From: Escherichia phage vB_EcoM_G2469
Length of the DNA: 64,000 nt
Sequence record: MK327934.1
Direction: 5' to 3' (one strand)
A model generated the notes under the pieces. It did no database searches and had not been told where the DNA came from. It was given only the letters and a program-made list of their open reading frames with translations. The translations under genes were made by a program, and so were the position numbers. This document shows positions 262-45,183 of this stretch, one piece after another; position 1 is the stretch's first letter, and every line of letters starts with the position of its first letter.

Positions 262-564
262 TTATTTACCTTTAATTACTTTAGCTGCTTCGATAGCCGC
301 TTGCTGAAGGTCATCCATAGACATACCGAATTTAGAAGCAAAGTTATCAATTTTCTTTTCGACAGCATTCAAAGGCTTGGCCTGTTTACCTTCATTAGCG
401 CCAGGAAGAGCGAGAATACGCTCTTTGTCAATATAAAGGCTTACAAGTTTCTTACGGTCTTTATCGGACAAATCATGAAATGAATGGGCCTTTTTATTTA
501 TAGCGGCTTCTAATTTACCTGCACTCACTCGCGCTTCAGTAATAAATTCTTGATATGTTTTCAT
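262..564 (-). CDS. CTS-bearing internal (capsid-packaged) protein, IPII-like by size and position
   Basis: 100 aa ORF; N-terminus MKTYQEFITEA matches the T4 capsid targeting sequence MKTYQEFIAE; lies beside denV and e. Confidence 0.7.
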   Translation of the reverse strand: MKTYQEFITEARVSAGKLEAAINKKAHSFHDLSDKDRKKLVSLYIDKERILALPGANEGKQAKPLNAVEKKIDNFASKFGMSMDDLQQAAIEAAKVIKGK

Positions 565-605: not shown

Positions 606-1184
606 TTAGGAATTACGGGCTGCATTAGCAACGGCGTAAGCGTACTGAACATTAGCGTCTTTAAACGTGCCCTTAGTTGTATCTAGTTCTACCTTAAAAC
701 CGCCTTTAGCCATAACATCGGCAAATTCTTTACGGAAAGCCATTGCATCAAGACCTTTCCATGATGATTTATGCTTGGCAAATTCAAGACCTGCGAAGTT
801 GACAGCTTTAGCTAATTTATTATCAATGACCCATTTACCTGCTTTAGGCACAAACTTCGGACCTTTTTGTTTAGAGAACAGTTTTAAATTCCAGCGACGA
901 AGGTCACTGTCGGCTTTAACAAAAGCTGCGTCTAAGTTACTAGCAACAACATCTTCAATATGAGCAAATTTAAGTCCGTCAACTTCAATATTTAGATCAT
1001 TACGCCAGCGTAGTCCTTCCCAAGCGAAGGCTTTAAAGTCGGAAGCCTTTGTAGCTAAGTACCGTTCAATAGGAGCTGTTTTAGGGTCAAAGCCGTTTCC
1101 GCCACGATAATTCCACTCGTCCTTATTAATGCCTTGAGCTTTTCCTGCAAAGGCTTCGGCGATAAATTCTTTATATGTTTTCAT
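606..1184 (-). CDS. CTS-bearing internal protein, IPIII-like by size
   Basis: 192 aa ORF; N-terminus MKTYKEFIAEA (CTS); sigma70-type promoter TTTAC-N18-TATAAT upstream at 1215..1244. Confidence 0.7.
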   Translation of the reverse strand: MKTYKEFIAEAFAGKAQGINKDEWNYRGGNGFDPKTAPIERYLATKASDFKAFAWEGLRWRNDLNIEVDGLKFAHIEDVVASNLDAAFVKADSDLRRWNLKLFSKQKGPKFVPKAGKWVIDNKLAKAVNFAGLEFAKHKSSWKGLDAMAFRKEFADVMAKGGFKVELDTTKGTFKDANVQYAYAVANAARNS

Positions 1185-1247: not shown

Positions 1248-1508
1248 TTAAGCTTTACCGCCAGAAATAATTCCGAAGTTGTTAAAATCGTATCCAATAT
1301 CGTCAACATCTACTTTAGGACTTACTACAACATAAGCAATTTCACTACGTTTTGCATAGGTGTTGATTTCTTTACCATCGCCACCTAAGAAAGAATACCC
1401 ATTACGTTTTAATGAGCCAAAGTCTTCGGCATCACCAATGAAAGCTTTAACTTTAAATTTAGGACCTTTGGCATCTGCTTCAGCGATAAATTCTTGATAC
1501 ATTTTCAT
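1248..1508 (-). CDS. CTS-bearing small internal protein (novel member)
   Basis: 86 aa ORF; N-terminus MKMYQEFIAEA; immediately downstream of denV on the same strand. Confidence 0.6.
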   Translation of the reverse strand: MKMYQEFIAEADAKGPKFKVKAFIGDAEDFGSLKRNGYSFLGGDGKEINTYAKRSEIAYVVVSPKVDVDDIGYDFNNFGIISGGKA

Positions 1509-1514
1509 TTTTCC

Positions 1515-1928
1515 TTAGTAAATTGATTTACCATAGTATTTGTACCAAGTCGGACGTTGAGCAATTTTTTCATCTAAGCGTGCTTGACTTATCGCAATGG
1601 ACGCTTCAGACGGGACGTAATTATTACGAAATTCTATAGGAATGTCGGAAATATCCTGGACAGTCGTGTCCTTGATTTTGAAACCACGTTTCAAACATTC
1701 GGCTATTAGCTCGATTTGACGTAAACGTAAAAATTCGAGTTTGTCGTAAAAGAATGTTACGTGACCTGTGCCTAAGATAAATGTTGGAGAGATTTTAAAA
1801 TCCTTTACACGTTTACCGTTTTGAACATGTTTACGGACTGCACCAAATACGCGTGGTAATTCACGATACTCAGCCATAAGATGTTGGTCGGTCAGTTCAG
1901 AAACAAGTGTTAAATTGATACGGGTCAT
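1515..1928 (-). CDS. denV: endonuclease V (pyrimidine-dimer DNA glycosylase/AP lyase)
   Basis: [12 protein letters not shown]...[10 protein letters not shown] matches T4 DenV along its length; ATG taken at 1928 (track ORF starts 4 codons earlier). Confidence 0.93.
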
Positions 1929-1964
1929 AATTTCCTCCAAGTAGTTGATGAATGTATAGTATCA

Positions 1965-1994
1965 AAGTCCTTGGAGGAAGTAAACACTATTTTT
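1965..1994 (-). promoter_or_regulatory. sigma70-type early promoter for denV
   Basis: GTTTAC-N18-TACTAT on minus strand, flanked by a 10-bp inverted repeat TTCCTCCAAG/CTTGGAGGAA. Confidence 0.45.
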
Positions 1995-2268
1995 CTGAAG
2001 CGCCTGAAATATATTTTTCAAGACGCTGTTTCATCAACGAGCCGTTCTTAGCGATTTCTTCCGGTTTATCGCACATACGCAACAATGCTTCAAGCTTAAC
2101 GATATCACTGGTGCGCTCAAATTTGCGAGTATCTATCTTACTAGCAAGTTCAGAAATACGTGCTAATAGACTTTCGGCTTCAACCAAAGCTGCACCTAGC
2201 TTAGTTGCAAATGTGTCAGTAGCTTCGTTAAGAATAGATTCTGATAAAAATTCACTATATGTTTTCAT
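1987..2268 (-). CDS. CTS-bearing small internal protein (novel member)
   Basis: Internal ATG gives [11 protein letters not shown] (CTS-like); start overlaps the e stop codon as ATGA (translational coupling). Confidence 0.55.
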
Positions 2269-2753
2269 ATATACGCTTTCCAAGTTCCTGTTTTAAATGT
2301 TGAGATTACGCGTTTCGCGCGATTAGGTGTCTGACGATACCATTTAGATTGGGCTAGATTTACTGCCGCTTCGTCCCAACGTTTCTGTTGAAGCATACGA
2401 AGAGAATTAGTAAAACCGGCGACGCCTGCTACACCCATTTGGAAGACCATATTGACCAATGCACAACGACGAACCGCATCTAAAGAATCATATACCGGTT
2501 TAAGTTTAGCATTACCCAAGATTCCGCGAACGGCTTTATCAACGTCTTCATTAAATAGCTTTTCAGCCTCATCAAGGGTAATTGTACCGTTGCATTTACG
2601 ACCGATCATTCTGTCAAGTTCAGCTTTAGCTACGGCTAAAGACGGGTTCTTTGTTACCAAATGGCCTATGCCAATCGTCCAAAAGCCTTCAGTGTCTTTG
2701 TATAAAGTCAGTCTAAGACCTTCGTCATTACGAAGCATTTCAAATATATTCAT
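2265..2753 (-). CDS. e: endolysin (T4 lysozyme)
   Basis: [32 protein letters not shown]... near-identical to T4 lysozyme; GGAGG SD before the ATG at 2753. Confidence 0.97.
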
Positions 2754-2787
2754 AATACCTCCCACGTTTATAGGAGGTATTTATTAC

Positions 2788-3246
2788 TTATAGGAGGGTA
2801 GTGAGCACCTTATATAATGATTTGCCCATTACATATTCCCATTGAGAAGGTTTAATTAAAGCGAATGCATCAAATTCAGGAATCTGTCGTCCGTCTGGGA
2901 ATGTATGATAGGAATTACAAACACTGTTTCTGAATTGCTCGTGCTCTACAGGGATGGTATATTGGAACAGATGAATATTCTTATTGTCTGAGTAATGATG
3001 TTCACCTAGGTCTTTCAGGAAGGCAGGGTCATATTGTGTAAACCCAGTTTCTTCTTCGCATTCACGAATAGCGGCTTCAATAGGAGATTCGCCAGGTTCG
3101 ACACGGCCTTTAGGAATATCCCACCGATGAGCTAAAGAACCTTTAGGACGAGAACCAGTTACACGGCCCATGAATAATTCTTTATCTTCGGTAAGGAAAA
3201 TAATACCAGCTGATAGTTCTTTCACTTTATTTTTCTTACTCATCAT
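2788..3246 (-). CDS. nudE: Nudix hydrolase
   Basis: Nudix box GRVEPGESPIEAAIRECEEETGF; position directly downstream of e as in T4 (e.1). Confidence 0.85.
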   Translation of the reverse strand: MMSKKNKVKELSAGIIFLTEDKELFMGRVTGSRPKGSLAHRWDIPKGRVEPGESPIEAAIRECEEETGFTQYDPAFLKDLGEHHYSDNKNIHLFQYTIPVEHEQFRNSVCNSYHTFPDGRQIPEFDAFALIKPSQWEYVMGKSLYKVLTTLL

Positions 3247-9376: not shown

Positions 9377-9682
9377 TTAATTTTTCCAACTTAACAACTT
9401 GTAGTGTCCTTCATTCATACGTGGTTTATCCCAAGAAATACTAATATATGATTCGCTGTCAATAGAAGTCGCCGGGTTTTTCTCTACCGTAAGACCTTCA
9501 CTTTCCAGCCATTCAATAGTATTTGCGCATAAATCAGAAGAACACCTAATCGGAAACCGGCAAGATTTTTCACCTTTAGCTGCAGTGTTATACATCTTTT
9601 CTAAAATACGCTTTTGCACGTTTTTAAAAATAGTTTCAGCAGATTCTTCAGATTTTTTATTCAGTTCAGTGTAAAGACTCAT
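9377..9682 (-). CDS. small hypothetical protein
   Basis: 101 aa; GGAG SD; early promoter at 9711..9739. Confidence 0.55.
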   Translation of the reverse strand: MSLYTELNKKSEESAETIFKNVQKRILEKMYNTAAKGEKSCRFPIRCSSDLCANTIEWLESEGLTVEKNPATSIDSESYISISWDKPRMNEGHYKLLSWKN

Positions 9683-9702
9683 AATATTCTCCTCATGTTT
9701 TG
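9679..9702. repeat. 24-bp exact repeat, copy 2
   Basis: Identical to 4939..4962. Confidence 0.85.
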
Positions 9703-9710
9703 ATAGGTCT

Positions 9711-9739
9711 ATAGTAACACATCTAGGGAAGAAGTAAAC
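9711..9739 (-). promoter_or_regulatory. sigma70-type early promoter
   Basis: GTTTAC-N17-TACTAT. Confidence 0.45.
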
Positions 9740-9767
9740 AACTTTTTCAGTAAGTTATAGACCCCCT

Positions 9768-9783
9768 AAAGGGGACCGAAGTC
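9768..9783 (-). terminator. stem-loop of a stem-loop/promoter cassette
   Basis: GGGGACUUCGGUCCCC followed by UUUAGGG; sits between a gene end and the next early promoter. Confidence 0.4.
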
Positions 9784-9791
9784 CCCATTCT

Positions 9792-10418
9792 TTACTTACG
9801 AGTTTTTGCATACTGAGCAGCGTCAGCAGCCAAACGACCTGCCTGACGAAGTTTTTCTTTAATCGCATCGTGAAGTGGTTGAGTGTACTTCAAACCTTCG
9901 ATAGTCAAATAAAGACGATAAAGGTCCGGGGTATCAAGGTTGTTGATATGTTGGCCATTACGAAGAATATTGAATTCACGAACGAGTGAAGATGTATCGG
10001 ATTCAATATCACGAACAAGCGAAGATAGTTGTTTATATTTTTTTTCCAGACTAGAAGTATCAAACTTAAGAGCAGGAGCTTTAGGAGTTGCTTTTACTTC
10101 AGGCTTAGGCTCAGGTTTTGCTATTGCTTTAGGGGTCGCAGGTTTAGGAATGGAAGGAGTAGGTTTTACTTTAGGCGAACCCGATTTAGCAGAAACACCA
10201 CCACTAACAATATCTTTGAATGCTTTAGAAGCTCTGTAATATTCTTTTTGGCTGGAAGTGTCGATACCGTACATGGCTTGAACGTTTTTGAAAAACTCTG
10301 TACTAGTTTTTGTACCAGAAATAGCATCGTAAGCAGCTTGCCATTTCTCTTTTGTCATACGTACACCGGCTTCGGTGATTACTTCCGTTTCGGCTAAAAA
10401 TTCATTAAAAGTATACAT
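9792..10418 (-). CDS. CTS-bearing internal protein with Pro/Lys-rich linker (novel member)
   Basis: 208 aa; N-terminus MYTFNEFLAETE (CTS-like); PKVKPTPSIPKPATPKAIAKPEPKPEVKATPKAP linker; TATAAATA late-promoter motif 36 nt upstream. Confidence 0.65.
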   Translation of the reverse strand: MYTFNEFLAETEVITEAGVRMTKEKWQAAYDAISGTKTSTEFFKNVQAMYGIDTSSQKEYYRASKAFKDIVSGGVSAKSGSPKVKPTPSIPKPATPKAIAKPEPKPEVKATPKAPALKFDTSSLEKKYKQLSSLVRDIESDTSSLVREFNILRNGQHINNLDTPDLYRLYLTIEGLKYTQPLHDAIKEKLRQAGRLAADAAQYAKTRK

Positions 10419-10453
10419 CGATGGTCCTTAGAAAGTAGGTTTATTGTTTACTA

Positions 10454-10461
10454 TATTTATA
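10454..10461 (-). promoter_or_regulatory. T4-type late promoter (TATAAATA)
   Basis: Exact TATAAATA on minus strand, 36 nt before the ATG at 10418. Confidence 0.6.
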
Positions 10462-10465
10462 CAAA

Positions 10466-10488
10466 AAAGCCCCAACCTTTCGGAAGGG
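10466..10488 (-). terminator. rho-independent terminator
   Basis: Minus-strand RNA AGCCCCUUCCGAAAGGUUGGGGCU followed by UUUUUU. Confidence 0.75.
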
Positions 10489-10495
10489 GCTATAT

Positions 10496-10793
10496 ACCTT
10501 GTCGGGGTTCCACCTGCTAAGGCAAGTGTTTGTACGAAACGCCGGGATTCGAACCCGGTTATTAAGTAGTTGACGCTACTCAATATTTTTAAAAGGCCAT
10601 ATCTCGACCATATCCGAACGTTCCGTCAAAAACGCTACTCGGCTTACGGCAAAGATATTTCCTCGAATCGATAATTCGGTGCGCCGTTTCTGCTGTGATA
10701 TAAGGGGGCATTAACAAAACATAAAGATTTATTAATGCCAGTCCTTACTCAGGGAACATCAGTCCGACGACTTACCGGTAGCGACCCGGCTTC
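10496..10793 (-). other. non-coding region with tRNA-like 3' half (possible stable RNA or tRNA remnant)
   Basis: Perfect T arm CCGGG-UUCGAAU-CCCGG plus acceptor 3' strand at 10535..10558, but no canonical D or anticodon arms fold; 8-bp palindrome GGCATTAA...TTAATGCC at 10708..10740. Confidence 0.35.
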
Positions 10794-11138
10794 TTATTTT
10801 GGCATATCATCAATTTGCTCTCGACGCCGACGCCATAGATTAATCGCTTCATAAACACATTCTGCGTTTGGTATATGACGGCAATAATATAATGATTCGC
10901 GTTTCTGGAATCGATGTTGCAATGGGATTTCGTTTAAAAGGTCTTTACGGTCAAAGTATTCAAAACTAGTTAACCTGGAACGGTTTTTAATGAACTTCCA
11001 ATGACCAAATTCATTTTGAACATAGATGTAATCTGCATGTTGGTATAACAAATTAATCAATCGGTCTGAAATAACTGTATCATGTTCGTTAAAATAAAAC
11101 GTTAAATCATGAACTACTAAGTAAACATTACCTTTCAT
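10794..11138 (-). CDS. hypothetical protein (114 aa)
   Basis: ATG at 11138 with GAGGAAAA SD; the longer track ORF would overlap the tRNA. Confidence 0.55.
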   Translation of the reverse strand: MKGNVYLVVHDLTFYFNEHDTVISDRLINLLYQHADYIYVQNEFGHWKFIKNRSRLTSFEYFDRKDLLNEIPLQHRFQKRESLYYCRHIPNAECVYEAINLWRRRREQIDDMPK

Positions 11139-11233: not shown

Positions 11234-11333
11234 ATGATGCGGCTTTGGGTGTTTCAGTGTTACTCGTTTGTAGGTTCTACTTTTAACCCTTATTCGAACA
11301 ACTTACCTACCTAAGAGCGTACTCACCGCGAAT

Positions 11334-12409: not shown

Positions 12410-12673
12410 TTATTTCAAATATATTGCGTATTTTTTATAGCCACCAGGCTCGTGTCGAAGACCTTTATCATTCGCAAAACGTTGAATGTTATTGAACTGA
12501 TTTTCATCAAGTTCGGATGTGTCAAATACGAAAAAGTTTCGTTTGTTACCAAGCGTGATATGCGGAGTTAAGTCAATGTTATACAAATTAAGAATATCAG
12601 CAATAACCTGATTGACCGCTTTGTTAATTTTCACACCAGATGATTCTGAGATGAATTCGTTGAAAGTTTTCAT
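12410..12673 (-). CDS. CTS-bearing small internal protein (novel member)
   Basis: Internal ATG gives MKTFNEFISES; early promoter TTTACA-N17-TATAGT at 12706..12734. Confidence 0.55.
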   Translation of the reverse strand: MKTFNEFISESSGVKINKAVNQVIADILNLYNIDLTPHITLGNKRNFFVFDTSELDENQFNNIQRFANDKGLRHEPGGYKKYAIYLK

Positions 12674-12734: not shown

Positions 12735-13046
12735 TTATTTTATGCCTTTAGAAGAAATGGTATTTTGGCGTTTAACCCCTGTTTGTGAAAAATCGTGGTT
12801 ATCGATTTGGTCGACTCGCATAACACCAAATGCAGATTTAATTTTAGCCTTTGAACCTTTTTTGATACTAATTATCATATAAGTATCATTTTTCTTATAT
12901 TCGAAATTTGTTACTTCAACGCCTTGATTAGAAATTGACTTAATAATAGCATTAGCGTATTCATCATCTAACGGACCGGTGGTGTTAATAATAAAATTTT
13001 TATCGGCTTTAGTAGCTTCAGCGATAAACTCTTGATAAGTTTTCAT
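12735..13046 (-). CDS. CTS-bearing small internal protein (ipI-position member)
   Basis: 103 aa; N-terminus MKTYQEFIAEA is an exact CTS; next to the 57B-like gene; promoter at 13084..13112. Confidence 0.65.
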   Translation of the reverse strand: MKTYQEFIAEATKADKNFIINTTGPLDDEYANAIIKSISNQGVEVTNFEYKKNDTYMIISIKKGSKAKIKSAFGVMRVDQIDNHDFSQTGVKRQNTISSKGIK

Positions 13047-39883: not shown

Positions 39884-41455
39884 ATGAAATTTAATATCTT
39901 AAGTTTGTTTGCTCCATGGGCAAAAATGGACGAACGTGATTACAAAGACCAAGAAAAAGAAAATTTAGAATCTATCACCACACCAAAATTAGACGATGGT
40001 GCTAAAGAATACGAAGTATCTGAAAATGAAGCACAGCAAACATATAATGCTATGTTTCAGAGAATGTTTGGTAGTCAAGAACCAGGGCTCAAATCAACCC
40101 GTGAACTAATCGATACGTATCGAAATTTGATGACGAACTATGAAGTGGATAATGCAGTCTCTGAAATAGTTTCCGATGCTATCGTATATGAAGATGATAC
40201 AGAAGTCGTTTCTATAAATTTAGACAACACAAAATTTAGTCCAAATATAAAATCAATGATGTTGGATGAATTTAACGAAGTGTTGAATCATTTATCTTTC
40301 CAACGTAAAGGTTCAGACCATTTTAGGCGTTGGTATGTGGATTCTCGAATTTTCTTCCATAAAATTATTGACCCTAAACGCCCTAAAGAAGGTATTAAAG
40401 AGCTTCGTCGTTTAGACCCACGTCAAGTTCAATATGTCCGTGAAGTTATTACAACCACTGAAGCCGGTGTTAAAATAGTCAAGGGTTATAAAGAATATTT
40501 CATTTATGACACATCACACGAATCTTATGCTTGTGATGGTCGCATATATGAAGCGGGCACAAAAATAAAAATCCCTAAAGCCGCGATTGTTTACGCCCAT
40601 TCTGGTTTAGTTGATTGTTGTGGTAAAAATATCATTGGTTATTTGCATCGGGCTATTAAGCCAGCGAACCAATTAAAACTTCTTGAAGATGCCGTCGTAA
40701 TTTATCGTATTACTCGTGCTCCCGATCGTCGTGTATGGTACGTTGATACAGGTAATATGCCTTCAAGAAAAGCAGCAGAACATATGCAACATGTTATGAA
40801 TACGATGAAAAACCGTATTGCATATGATGCTACTACAGGCAAGATTAAAAACCAACAGCATATTATGTCGATGACCGAAGATTATTGGTTACAACGACGT
40901 GATGGTAAAGCAGTAACAGAAGTTGATACATTACCAGGTGCAGATAATACCGGAAATATGGAAGATGTACGTTGGTTCCGTAATGCGCTTTATATGGCTT
41001 TACGTATTCCTATTACCCGTATTCCAAGTGACCAAGGTGGTATACAGTTTGATGCTGGTACTTCTATTACACGAGATGAATTATCATTTGGTAAATTTAT
41101 TCGTGAGCTGCAACATAAATTTGAAGAGATATTCCTAGACCCGCTTAAAACTAATTTAATTCTTAAAGGAATTATTACAGAAGATGAGTGGAATGATGAA
41201 ATAAATAATATTAAGATAAAATTTCATCGGGATAGTTATTTCTCGGAATTAAAGGATGCTGAGATTCTGGAGCGTCGCATTAATATGCTTCAGATGGCCG
41301 AACCATTTATTGGTAAATATATTTCTCACAGAACAGCTATGAAAGATATTCTTCAGATGTCTGACGAGGAAATTGAACAAGAGGCTAAGCAAATTGAAGA
41401 AGAGTCGAAAGAGGCTCGTTTCCAAGACCCCGACCAAGAACAAGAGGATTTTTAA
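39884..41455 (+). CDS. 20: portal vertex protein gp20
   Basis: 523 aa; late promoter at 39848..39855. Confidence 0.96.
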
Positions 41456-41685
41456 TGGACGATTTAATTCAAGCTATTAAATCAAACGACCTCGTTGCTA
41501 CTCGAAAGTTTTTTGAAAGTGCAATGGCAGAAAAAACGGTTCGTTTGATTGAAGCACGCAAAGCAGAAATCGCTTCTCAATTTTTAATTGAAGGCGAAGA
41601 ACCTGAAGAAGAAAAGAAAGCTTCGGAAGACGACGCTGATGAAGGCGATGACGACGAAGACGAAGATGATGAGGACGATGAATAA
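41455..41685 (+). CDS. 67: prohead core protein gp67
   Basis: 76 aa with poly-acidic C-terminus. Confidence 0.9.
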
Positions 41686-42110
41686 TGTATCTTATCCCTG
41701 AATCTTATGAATTGGTACTCGAAAATGTCGAAGCACTTATTCCTGAAGCACAGGGCCGAATCGATGCATTGTCTTCTGCTCTCGATATTGACGATATAAA
41801 TACTATTATCGAGAACATGCTTGAAACTGAAACGGATTTAGCTGTTGCAATGGCTTCCATTATTAATGAAGAACAGTTAAATGAGTTTATCGTTAAACAT
41901 GTTTCTTCTCGTGGTGAAGTCACTCGCACTAAAGACCGTAAAACTCGTGAACGTAACGCGTTCCAAACCACTGGTCTTTCTAAAGCAAAACGTAGACAAA
42001 TCGCTCGTAAGGTCGTTAAAGCTAAAAAAGCTAACCCTTCAGGCCAAGTTAAAGGCTTGCGTAAGCGTAAAAAGGCTCTTAAACGTCGTAAAGCATTAGG
42101 ATTAAGCTAA
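41685..42110 (+). CDS. 68: prohead core protein gp68
   Basis: 141 aa, synteny. Confidence 0.9.
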
Positions 42111-42751
42111 TGAATAAACCCGAGTTACTTATTGAAACTTGGGGTCAACCCGGTGAGATTATTGATGGCGTTCCAATGTTGGAATCTCATGATGGAAAAG
42201 ATTCTGGCTTAAAACCAGGGCTTTATATAGAAGGTATTTTTCTTCAGGCAGAGGTTGTTAACCGAAATAAACGTTTATATCCTAAACGCGTTTTGGAAAA
42301 AGCAGTAAGTGACTATATTAAAGAACAAGTCGCAACCAAACAAGCCCTTGGAGAATTAAACCATCCACCTCGTGCAAATGTTGACCCTATGCAAGCCGCT
42401 ATCATTATTGAAGATATGTGGTGGAAAGGAAACGATGTATATGGACGTGCTAGAATTATTGAAGGCGACCATGGTCCCGGTGATAAATTAGCTGCTAATA
42501 TACGAGCTGGTTGGATTCCAGGTGTTTCCTCTCGTGGTCTTGGTTCTTTAACCGACACCAATAAAGGGTACCGTATCGTGAACGAAGGATTTAAATTAAC
42601 CGTCGGCGTAGATGCCGTATGGGGACCTTCTGCTCCAGATGCTTGGGTTACTCCTAAACAAATATCAGAATCAGAAAATTCGGTGGAAATCACCAAAAAC
42701 AGTGCTGATGAAGCATTTAAAGCTCTCGCAGAGAGTTTAAAAGCATTATAA
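42110..42751 (+). CDS. 21: prohead core protease gp21
   Basis: 213 aa; the protease expected to cleave CTS and scaffold substrates. Confidence 0.95.
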   Translation: MNKPELLIETWGQPGEIIDGVPMLESHDGKDSGLKPGLYIEGIFLQAEVVNRNKRLYPKRVLEKAVSDYIKEQVATKQALGELNHPPRANVDPMQAAIIIEDMWWKGNDVYGRARIIEGDHGPGDKLAANIRAGWIPGVSSRGLGSLTDTNKGYRIVNEGFKLTVGVDAVWGPSAPDAWVTPKQISESENSVEITKNSADEAFKALAESLKAL

Positions 42752-42784
42752 ATAATAATGTAATCTAAACCACAGGACACTAAA

Positions 42785-43597
42785 ATGATCAAAGAACAAC
42801 TTTTGAAAGAAGCTCAGAATATCGAGACTTCAGTTGCTCTTAATAGTGTTTTCGAATCAGTAGAACTGTCTCCGGACGTTAAAGCTAATTTCAGCACTGT
42901 ATTCGAAGCCACCGTTAAGCAGGAAGCAGTCAAACTAGCTGAATCTCATATCAAAGCTATCGCCGAAAAAGCCGAAGAAGAAGTTGAAAAGGCTAAAGAA
43001 GATGCTGAAGAGAAAGCTGATAAAAAATTGGCTGAACAAGCTTCTAAATTCCTAGACCATCTTGCAAAAGAATGGCTCGCAGAAAACCAAATCGCAGTTG
43101 ATAAAGGCATTAAAGCTGATTTGTTCGAATCCATGCTTGGTGGTCTGAAAGAACTGTTTGTTGAACATAACGTTGTTGTTCCAGAAGAATCTGTAGATGT
43201 TGTAGCAGAAATGGAAGAAGAGCTGGCCGAACATAAAGAAGAAACCGCTCGTTTGTTCGAAGAAGTTACCAAACGTGATGCATATATCAATTACGTTCAG
43301 CGTGAAACCGCTATTAATGAAAGCGTAAAAGACCTGACTGAATCTCAGAAAGAAAAAGTTATTGGCCTGGTTGAAGGTATGGATTATTCTGACGCATTTG
43401 GTACTAAGTTAACTGCTATTGTAGAAATGGTTAAAGGTTCTACTAAAGAAGAAGCCGCTATTACCGAAAGTATAAATACAGTTGACAATGACGCTGCCGG
43501 TCTTAATTTTGTTGCCGAAGCAGTTGACACTACCACAACTCAGGTAGAACAGAATTCTAATGTAAGTTTATATGCGAAAGTCGCATCTCGTTTCTAA
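42785..43597 (+). CDS. 22: prohead core scaffold protein gp22
   Basis: 270 aa acidic coiled-coil. Confidence 0.95.
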   Translation: MIKEQLLKEAQNIETSVALNSVFESVELSPDVKANFSTVFEATVKQEAVKLAESHIKAIAEKAEEEVEKAKEDAEEKADKKLAEQASKFLDHLAKEWLAENQIAVDKGIKADLFESMLGGLKELFVEHNVVVPEESVDVVAEMEEELAEHKEETARLFEEVTKRDAYINYVQRETAINESVKDLTESQKEKVIGLVEGMDYSDAFGTKLTAIVEMVKGSTKEEAAITESINTVDNDAAGLNFVAEAVDTTTTQVEQNSNVSLYAKVASRF

Positions 43598-43614
43598 TTT
43601 AAAGGTTAACACAA

Positions 43615-45183
43615 ATGACTACTATCAAAACTAAAGCTCAGCTCGTAGACAAATGGAAAGAACTGCTGGAAGGTGAAGGCCTGCCGGAAATCGCTAATAG
43701 CAAGCAGGCTATTATCGCTAAAATCTTCGAAAACCAGGAAAAAGATTTCGAAGTATCCCCTGAATATAAAGACGAGAAAATCGCTCAGGCATTTGGTTCT
43801 TTCTTGACCGAAGCTGAAATTGGTGGTGACCATGGTTATAATGCTCAGAACATCGCAGCAGGTCAAACCTCTGGTGCAGTAACCCAAATTGGGCCGGCAG
43901 TTATGGGTATGGTTCGTCGTGCTATTCCTAATCTGATCGCTTTTGATATTTGTGGTGTTCAGCCTATGAACAGCCCGACCGGCCAGGTATTTGCTCTCCG
44001 TGCAGTATATGGTAAAGACCCTATCGCTGCTGGCGCTAAAGAAGCTTTCCATCCGATGTATGCCCCAGACGCGATGTTCTCTGGTCAGGGTGCTGCTAAG
44101 AAATTCCCAGCTCTGGCTGCTGACACTACTACTGTTGTAGGTGATATCTATACTCACTTCTTCCAAGAAACTGGTACTGTATATCTGCAAGCTTCTGCTG
44201 TCGTAACACTTGATTCTGGTGCAACTGATGCAGCTAAATTAGATGCAGAAGTTAAGAAACAAATGGAAGCTGGTGCACTGGTAGAAATCGCTGAAGGTAT
44301 GGCTACTTCTATCGCTGAACTTCAGGAAGGTTTCAACGGTTCTACCGATAACCCATGGAATGAAATGGGCTTCCGTATCGATAAACAAGTTATCGAAGCT
44401 AAATCTCGCCAGCTGAAAGCTGCTTACTCTATCGAATTAGCACAAGACCTCCGTGCAGTACACGGTATGGATGCTGATGCTGAACTGAGCGGTATTCTGG
44501 CTACAGAAATTATGCTAGAAATCAACCGTGAAGTTGTTGATTGGATTAACTACTCAGCACAGGTTGGTAAATCTGGTATGACCCTGACTCCGGGTTCTAA
44601 AGCTGGCGTATTTGACTTCCAAGACCCGATTGATATCCGTGGTGCTCGTTGGGCCGGTGAAAGCTTTAAATCTCTGTTGTTCCAGATTGATAAAGAAGCA
44701 GTTGAAATTGCTCGTCAAACCGGTCGTGGTGAAGGTAACTTCATTATCGCTTCCCGTAACGTAGTTAACGTACTGGCTTCAGTTGATACTGGTATTTCTT
44801 ACGCTGCACAGGGTCTGGCTTCTGGTTTTAATACCGACACTACTAAGTCTGTATTTGCCGGTGTACTTGGTGGTAAATACCGCGTATACATCGACCAGTA
44901 TGCTAAACAGGATTACTTCACCGTTGGTTACAAAGGCGCTAACGAAATGGATGCAGGTATTTACTATGCTCCTTACGTTGCACTTACCCCGCTGCGTGGT
45001 TCCGATCCTAAGAACTTCCAGCCGGTAATGGGCTTTAAAACTCGTTACGGTATCGGTGTTAACCCGTTTGCTGAAAGTTCCCTGCAGGCTCCAGGTGCTC
45101 GCATCCAGTCCGGTATGCCATCTATCCTGAACAGCCTTGGTAAGAACGCTTACTTCCGCCGTGTATATGTAAAAGGCATCTAA
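43615..45183 (+). CDS. 23: major capsid protein gp23
   Basis: 522 aa; strong hairpin terminator downstream. Confidence 0.97.
   Translation: MTTIKTKAQLVDKWKELLEGEGLPEIANSKQAIIAKIFENQEKDFEVSPEYKDEKIAQAFGSFLTEAEIGGDHGYNAQNIAAGQTSGAVTQIGPAVMGMVRRAIPNLIAFDICGVQPMNSPTGQVFALRAVYGKDPIAAGAKEAFHPMYAPDAMFSGQGAAKKFPALAADTTTVVGDIYTHFFQETGTVYLQASAVVTLDSGATDAAKLDAEVKKQMEAGALVEIAEGMATSIAELQEGFNGSTDNPWNEMGFRIDKQVIEAKSRQLKAAYSIELAQDLRAVHGMDADAELSGILATEIMLEINREVVDWINYSAQVGKSGMTLTPGSKAGVFDFQDPIDIRGARWAGESFKSLLFQIDKEAVEIARQTGRGEGNFIIASRNVVNVLASVDTGISYAAQGLASGFNTDTTKSVFAGVLGGKYRVYIDQYAKQDYFTVGYKGANEMDAGIYYAPYVALTPLRGSDPKNFQPVMGFKTRYGIGVNPFAESSLQAPGARIQSGMPSILNSLGKNAYFRRVYVKGI

Follow-up and report, generated by a model that had tools for sequence, protein, structure and literature searches.

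Internal Proteins of T4-Type Phages

The internal proteins (Ips) of T4-type phages are a diverse set in which only the capsid-targeting sequence (CTS) is conserved (PMC3012670). In the case of IPIII, the first 10 residues are enough for targeting; residues 4 and 7 of the CTS matter for targeting and residues 8 and 10 for processing, and gp21 cleavage takes place after the motif L/I-x-E (PMC9026906). Ip1, Ip2, and Ip3 were shown in 2025 each to inhibit a distinct GmrSD type IV restriction enzyme (PMC12373910). Among ten further ip genes that Silas et al. put to the test, none inhibited GmrSD, and for ip4-10 no reproducible inhibition was seen, so that an anti-GmrSD role cannot be assumed for every Ip. 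IPIII is described in the literature as acting in the cytoplasm.

Here a further candidate of this class is described from a stretch of 64,000 nucleotides of Escherichia phage vB_EcoM_G2469 (MK327934.1), the whole of which was analyzed and is called the window below. The window belongs to a Mosigvirus, a T4-like coliphage, and its minus strand keeps the gene order of T4 (4, 2, 3, 1, 57A, 57B, ipI-type locus, trna.x, tRNAs, e.x, e, ipIII/ipII). Over the region of interest (9600..10700), identity is 99.9% with Escherichia phage FL31 and 98% with many phages of the mar005P1 type. The region holds an ORF of 208 aa which, judged from its conservation, is a real, conserved gene of a T4-like coliphage, and every element described for it in the initial annotation is present at the locus. 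The known Ip genes of T4 sit at the ipI and e-ipIII-ipII loci; the gene described here lies at a third, between the tRNA terminator and e.8, and its family is very probably an unannotated internal-protein family at this third ip locus. Like the T4 Ips, it is a non-essential, polymorphic gene in a plastic region beside the tRNA and e genes.

The Gene and the Slot It Occupies

The coding sequence (208 aa plus stop, ATG start) runs over 9792..10418 on the minus strand, and the ORF listing returns exactly the sequence first quoted for it. Its product belongs to phrog_2280 and is a homolog of JS98 orf135. A Shine-Dalgarno sequence, AAGGA, can be read on the same strand at 10425..10429, 6 nt ahead of the ATG.

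Upstream of the gene, the tRNA/rnaD/rnaC unit ends in an intrinsic terminator (10462..10491, minus strand), recognized both by RNA folding and by homology to T4. Its stem (10468..10491) pairs AGCCCC with GGGGCU around a GAAA-capped inner stem and leads into a U6 run (10463..10468); the predicted fold has a dG of -16.5 kcal/mol and a z of -3.1 against shuffled sequences. A simple terminator scan overlooked this element because of a 2x2 internal loop in the stem, and folding recovered it. The terminator had been placed at 10466..10488, which is inside the true element but a few bases off, while the hairpin and the U6 run themselves are real. Since the segment ~10459..10799 (minus strand) shares 91% identity with the stretch of T4 that holds rnaD, rnaC, and the terminator behind them, the element is the tRNA-operon terminator of T4 in conserved form; it occurs in JS98 and AR1 as well. 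The insulation of the gene from the tRNA unit, as originally proposed, agrees with the presence of this T4 tRNA/rnaC operon terminator between the two.

In T4 the terminator is followed by ~110 nt that contain no ORF and then by the early promoter of e.8, and it is exactly this gap that is filled in the window by a late-type promoter, the 208-aa ORF, and a 3' hairpin. The downstream border of the slot is a T4 early-type promoter, GTTTAC-N17-TACTAT (9711..9739, minus strand), which serves the ORF at the e.8 position (9377..9682) and has the same counterpart ahead of e.8 in T4. The cassette itself ends in the 3' hairpin GGGGAC-UUCG-GUCCCC (9771..9786, minus strand), followed by UUU only. The folding score of this hairpin (z -0.55) is no better than that of shuffled sequence, and it is conserved after the orthologs in JS98, CHI14, EcS1, and Potts1; it is predicted to be a weak terminator or an RNA-stabilizing hairpin.

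A CTS-Type Propeptide

The initial annotation ascribed a diverged CTS to the protein, and MYTFNEFLAETE does agree with the T4 CTS, MKTYQEFIAE, at 6 of 10 positions, with conservative exchanges at 3 others. When every ATG in the whole window was scored against the T4 CTS (threshold at least 15/20), seven ORFs passed, none of them on the plus strand; among ORFs of 40 aa or more, the next score was 10. Two of the seven lie in the ipI locus (12735..13046, 103 aa; 12410..12673, 87 aa) and four after e (1987..2268, 93 aa; 1248..1508, 86 aa; 606..1184, the IPIII ortholog; 262..564, IPII-like, 100 aa), all on the minus strand, and the seventh is the 208-aa ORF.

The predicted propeptide of the 208-aa protein comprises residues 1-16 (10371..10418, minus strand), with the CTS core MYTFNEFLAE. 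At the targeting positions it has F4, where T4 has Y, and F7, and a scan for L/I-x-E finds two gp21-type sites, LAE/T (residues 8-10) and ITE/A (residues 14-16, with A17 after the cut; the slash marks the cleavage). Residue 2 is a Tyr, and Lys or Leu in the relatives. The alignment of 10 members of the family shows no variation at F7 and E16 and almost none at E10 and A17. The propeptide of CHI14 and EcS1, MLKFKEFISE/A, matches the T4 form MKTYQEFIAE/A at each position, and relative to it the propeptide of the window has six extra residues and the second site ITE/A. This second site aligns with the end of the T4 IPI propeptide, MKTFKEFTSTTTPVSTITE/A, at the same junction, so that the mature N-terminus is predicted at A17, possibly with an extra cut after E10. 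The CTS positions and the E/A junction are kept while the N-terminal domains behind them drop to 19-39% identity, which points to selection on the propeptide itself. The family alignment thus identifies a CTS-type propeptide with conserved cleavage junctions, as in T4 IPI-III and the polymorphic ip4-ip10, which share the N-terminal propeptide, the aromatic residue 4, Phe-7, and the gp21 site L/I-x-E/A.

The predicted mature protein (~21 kDa) is basic like the T4 Ips, with a pI of 9.7-9.8 as compared to 9.65 for T4 IPIII. As for T4, the gp21/gp22 machinery is encoded by the phage: tblastn locates gp20, gp67, gp68, gp21, gp22, and gp23 at 39884..45180, with gp21 (42110..42742) 88% and gp22 (42785..43594) 77% identical to the T4 proteins, so the machinery that reads the CTS is present.

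An Autonomous Late-Type Promoter

The T4 late-promoter (gp55) consensus TATAAATA is matched exactly at 10454..10461 (minus strand), 35 nt before the ATG. On the minus strand, AGCCCCTTCCGAAAGGTTGGGGC is followed by T6, a G, TATAAATA, a 35-nt stretch with the AAGGA, and the ATG. There are 20 copies of TATAAATA in 128 kb (both strands of the window), and the chance of finding a correctly oriented copy within ~60 nt of a given ATG is p ~0.01. The retention of the motif in divergent orthologs likewise argues against a chance occurrence.

The promoter region was compared for 14 genes of the family, whose carriers represent at least 10 named genera (Mosigvirus, Dhakavirus, Winklervirus, Kagamiyamavirus, Tegunavirus, Karamvirus, Kanagawavirus, Marfavirus, Jiaodavirus, and Tequatrovirus) and include kv_tblp2, a further carrier with no assigned genus. 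In 12 of the 14, the degenerate motif NATAAATA stands 35-44 nt ahead of the ATG, usually directly after a GC-rich hairpin, in the form of TATAAATA (six genes), GATAAATA (four), or CATAAATA (two); half of these 12 genes therefore have G or C in place of T as the first base. One of the remaining two has the motif at -88 and the other comes second in a tandem pair of genes. The intergenic sequence around the hairpin and NATAAATA differs between the family genes. At the level of sequence, the exact match and a position conserved across many genera bear out the late-type promoter that had been assigned to the gene as its own.

It had further been stated that no other CTS ORF in the window has an exact TATAAATA. 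This is literally true, but the uniqueness of late expression that it implies is unsupported. Before the lysozyme gene e (2271..2753), at 2778..2785 (minus strand), lies AATAAATA, where T4 has two exact copies of TATAAATA that serve its own ip genes behind e in the same way, and this element is probably a late promoter for e and for the four CTS ORFs downstream of e. Because late transcripts from the e promoter would be available to other CTS ORFs, the feature at the third locus is better described as an autonomous late promoter than as the mark of the only late-expressed Ip. It does differ in this respect from T4 ipI, ipII, and ipIII, which have no TATAAATA directly upstream and have early-type promoters there instead. 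T4 early-type promoters also lie directly upstream of several of the six other CTS ORFs of the window. A further exact TATAAATA, found at 495..502 (minus strand) inside the IPII-like ORF (262..564) and 62 nt past the start codon of that ORF, may have arisen by chance or may be a late promoter of the downstream gene (denV region).

Domain Architecture and Family

An AlphaFold model based on a 10-sequence alignment (mean pLDDT 73) resolves the protein into two small helical domains with a disordered linker between them, in keeping with the build of two domains plus linker first deduced from the letters. The N-terminal domain (residues 17-73; 10200..10370, minus strand) has a pLDDT of ~86 and helices at 23-31, 39-50, and 57-72. 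It is followed by a basic linker rich in Pro, Ala, and Lys (residues 74-117; 10068..10199, minus strand; disordered in the model at 74-112, pLDDT ~33) with a net charge of +7 and three S/T-P-K-x motifs; the low-complexity stretch of 34 residues noted earlier, PKVKPTPSIPKPATPKAIAKPEPKPEVKATPKAP, corresponds to residues 82-115 within this disordered segment of 44 aa. The C-terminal domain, put at about 90 aa in the initial annotation, measures 91 aa (residues 118-208; 9795..10067, minus strand); the structure prediction suggested for it gives three helices (122-153, 164-177, and 180-206) with a pLDDT of ~90, in a fold that matches only generic helical hairpins. Unlike the T4 Ips, the protein is therefore bipartite, with a long disordered Pro/Lys/Ala linker.

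The match to the phrog_2280 profile (E 1.9e-57) is full-length, residues 1-203 covering positions 1-178 of 178. The family carries no function label in PHROGs, and all database names read "hypothetical protein." At the protein level it is conserved in 143 phage records of several genera, and relatives fill the same slot between terminator and e.8 in at least 10 named genera of Tevenvirinae and related phages. When 1.84 billion cluster representatives were searched exhaustively by HMM, only 13 clusters were hit, all of the same phage family, and a scan of viral contigs returned 6 loci only, most of them evidently genomes already in the set. The C-terminal domain is the most evenly conserved part, with 63-76% identity across all relatives and a largely invariant loop, RNGQHINNLDTPDLY. 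Identity in the N-terminal domain is 73-82% among the closer relatives and 19-39% in the three most distant ones, and the linker, of 24-49 aa, retains only 18-34% identity and is always rich in Pro, Ala, and Lys and net positive. The gene is absent from T4 and from phiR1-RT, a congener of the carrier fHe-Yen9-01 for which virion LC-MS/MS data exist. A literature search on virion proteomics and transcriptomics of JS98, Mosigvirus, fHe-Yen9-01, and other carriers found nothing usable.

In Potts1 (locus 1393..2085), gp293 is annotated from a GTG (VHPSHQ...), and a CTS start, MLKFKDILTE, lies 31 codons downstream; the motif CATAAATA falls inside the annotated 5' extension. The annotated start of Potts1 gp293 is almost certainly wrong.

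Modularity and Mobility

Combinations of the parts vary among the relatives. IME523 gp145 and P0023 share the CTS, the N-terminal domain, and the linker with the protein of the window and end in an unrelated C-terminal sequence, and P0026 has the same CTS, N-terminal domain, and linker with yet another C-terminal sequence. The reverse combination is found in P0025, P0027, and fHe-Yen9-01 gp153, which have the same C-terminal domain behind a different N-terminal domain (type B) that matches 525 phage records, mostly of Tequatrovirus. In fHe-Yen9-01 (locus 1501..2616) two phrog_2280 paralogs with different N-terminal domains, gp154 and gp153, stand in tandem; the second starts 10 nt past the stop codon of the first and lacks a separate promoter motif.

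The closest comparison is with AR1_137 of Tequatrovirus AR1 and the RB32-type ORF of T2/T6-like phages, also in phrog_2280. AR1_137 occupies the same slot, again with TATAAATA fused to the terminator, and has the same overall build and a CTS of the same type (MKSYAQFLNE/AVLNE/A); hhalign relates it to the 208-aa protein at 94.5% probability and E 8e-8, the 149 aligned columns taking in most of both proteins. At 157 aa, it differs in having the type B N-terminal domain, a shorter linker, and a truncated C-terminal domain. In AR1, a perfect direct repeat, 36 nt of the terminator of the tRNA operon, flanks the AR1_137 cassette (2424..2459 and 2979..3014), whereas the window has no such repeat. 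T4 has a single copy of the 36-nt terminator sequence, with the downstream junction, which is the product expected from a deletion by recombination between terminator repeats. This pattern would fit a cassette that is gained or lost when terminator copies recombine, and on the distribution across genomes the gene is an accessory, shuffled cassette, probably exchanged at a terminator-bounded hot spot of recombination.

Arbiol, Comeau and Krisch reportedly described in 2010 promoter-early stem-loop (PeSL) elements as mobile regulatory cassettes of T4-type genomes. The present locus resembles them in that a short stem-loop and a promoter bound an exchangeable single-gene cassette, with repeats of the element flanking the gene in AR1. 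It departs from them in that a terminator hairpin is fused to a late promoter and not to an early one.

The two-domain build had been read as that of a tethered effector. Domain swapping gives some support to this idea, but no domain matches a known effector or inhibitor. A wider reading can be offered only tentatively, as a possibility that we regard as rather unlikely: the family would consist of modular capsid-delivered effectors, in which a constant CTS, N-terminal domain, and linker carry swappable C-terminal "warhead" domains, the reverse combination also occurring, with recombination at a terminator-bounded site. If this were true, the family would be a phage analogue of polymorphic toxin/effector architectures, the two small folded domains could, by virtue of the linker, pass the portal and tail channel successively, and a third, widespread ip locus would have targets beyond the GmrSD enzymes of Ip1-3.

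Proposed Role and Alternative Explanations

Searches for a relative of the mature part gave little. Its domains have no sequence or fold similarity to the GmrSD inhibitors Ip1, Ip2, and Ip3; the alignment with IPII covers residues 1-10 only and that with IPI the propeptide only, with no homology of the mature parts; and no homology was found to the core proteins gp20, gp67, gp68, gp21, gp22, and gp23. Pfam gave no match beyond a sub-threshold SIX1_SD (E 0.21), PADLOC gave no match, and a PDB sequence profile search gave nothing below E 0.96. Foldseek reached only generic helical-hairpin folds in the PDB (best E 2.4) and only the protein's own family in BFVD. In this lack of detectable similarity of the mature part, in sequence or fold, the protein is unlike the T4 Ips.

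We favor, with a probability of about 0.7, the reading of the locus as a self-contained late-gene cassette for a T4-type internal head protein, which would be made late, be directed to the prohead, lose its propeptide to gp21, and enter the next host along with the DNA. By homology to T4, transcription of tRNA/rnaD/rnaC would end at the hairpin and U6 run. Late gp55-RNA polymerase would start a few bases past TATAAATA and produce a short-leader mRNA for one gene. According to the CTS rules, the N-terminal CTS would dock the protein on the gp22 scaffolding core of the prohead, and gp21 would cut most likely after Glu16 (ITE/A), possibly also after Glu10 (LAE/T). By analogy with the known Ips, the mature protein would stay with the packaged DNA, the Lys-rich linker probably contacting phosphates, and would be ejected with it. 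The C-terminal domain may then bind a host target, for example a type IV (GmrSD-like) restriction enzyme; this last step is speculation by class analogy with Ip1/Ip2/Ip3. As the T4 Ips inhibit GmrSD enzymes and IPIII is cytoplasmic, a role against restriction or other defenses is the best guess, and with no similarity to Ip1-3 or to entries of PADLOC, Pfam, and PDB the target is pure analogy, so that the anti-defense role is speculative.

T4 Alt, a packaged ADP-ribosyltransferase of ~76 kDa, is processed at both ends. The 208-aa protein resembles Alt in being larger than the small Ips and, by prediction, a cargo of the prohead core that is trimmed by gp21 and ejected, and differs from it in that no enzymatic domain or homology was detected.

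T4 IPIII has been proposed to act, together with gp22, as a prohead-core accessory, and it may be asked whether the 208-aa protein is packaged for a structural purpose and not for anti-defense, as a histone-H1-like DNA counterion or condensation aid or as an accessory of the prohead core. The Lys/Pro/Ala segment would then be the functional DNA-binding part and the helical-hairpin C-terminal domain would serve for self-association; we hold this to be unlikely. Less probable still is a late cytoplasmic protein that is never packaged, with a CTS-like N-terminus inherited or recombined without a targeting function and a promoter that mainly restarts late transcription from e.8 to e. The atypical Tyr at residue 2 would fit such a protein, as would the fact that packaging proteomics was found in the literature for no family member, and the bare UUU tail and poor z of the 3' hairpin make read-through into the downstream genes plausible. 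Yet the CTS positions and the E/A junction are conserved in spite of the divergence of the N-terminal domain, the genes downstream of the cassette have early promoters of their own, e has its own AATAAATA, and T4 does without any promoter at this position.

It is very improbable that the protein and T4 IPIII itself (193 aa, basic, same CTS) are diverged orthologs or paralogs. The two are similar in length and pI, and their first ~25 residues, a K(D/E)xW motif among them, can be aligned by both BLAST and hhalign. However, BLASTP goes no further than residues 1-26, hhalign gives the family only 38.8% probability against IPIII over 25 columns, and the predicted folds share nothing past the propeptide; the window has a true IPIII ortholog at 606..1184 (minus strand), 91% identical to T4 IPIII, and in JS98 an annotated ipIII exists beside orf135. 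An identity with the IPIII ortholog was accordingly rejected.

Significance of the Family

The finding overturns no concept. If the favored reading is correct, the family would add to the Ips a third ip locus, a cassette with an autonomous late promoter, and a modular two-domain design. T4 has no copy of the gene, which has therefore escaped sixty years of T4 genetics, and relatives are present in hundreds of sequenced T-even-type phages, many therapeutic candidates among them. After the GmrSD result of 2025, internal proteins without an assigned function are prime candidates for new counter-defense activities and host-range determinants.

Neighboring RNA Genes

The region upstream of the terminator, 10533..10797 (minus strand), contains homologs of rnaC (species 1) and rnaD (species 2) that are 91% identical to T4 and include a tRNA-like T-arm, GGGTTCGAATCCCGG; Rfam gave no family match for it. 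The presence of these genes makes the mechanically called ORFs 10428..10583 and 10589..10717 spurious. Further upstream, tRNA-Met and tRNA-Arg are separated by a spacer of 100 nt (11234..11333, minus strand) in which neither ARAGORN nor Rfam finds a tRNA. The corresponding spacer measures 7 nt in the close relative moskry and is occupied by a tRNA-Asn in JS98, and the 100 nt of the window may stem from the decay of a tRNA or from a small insertion.
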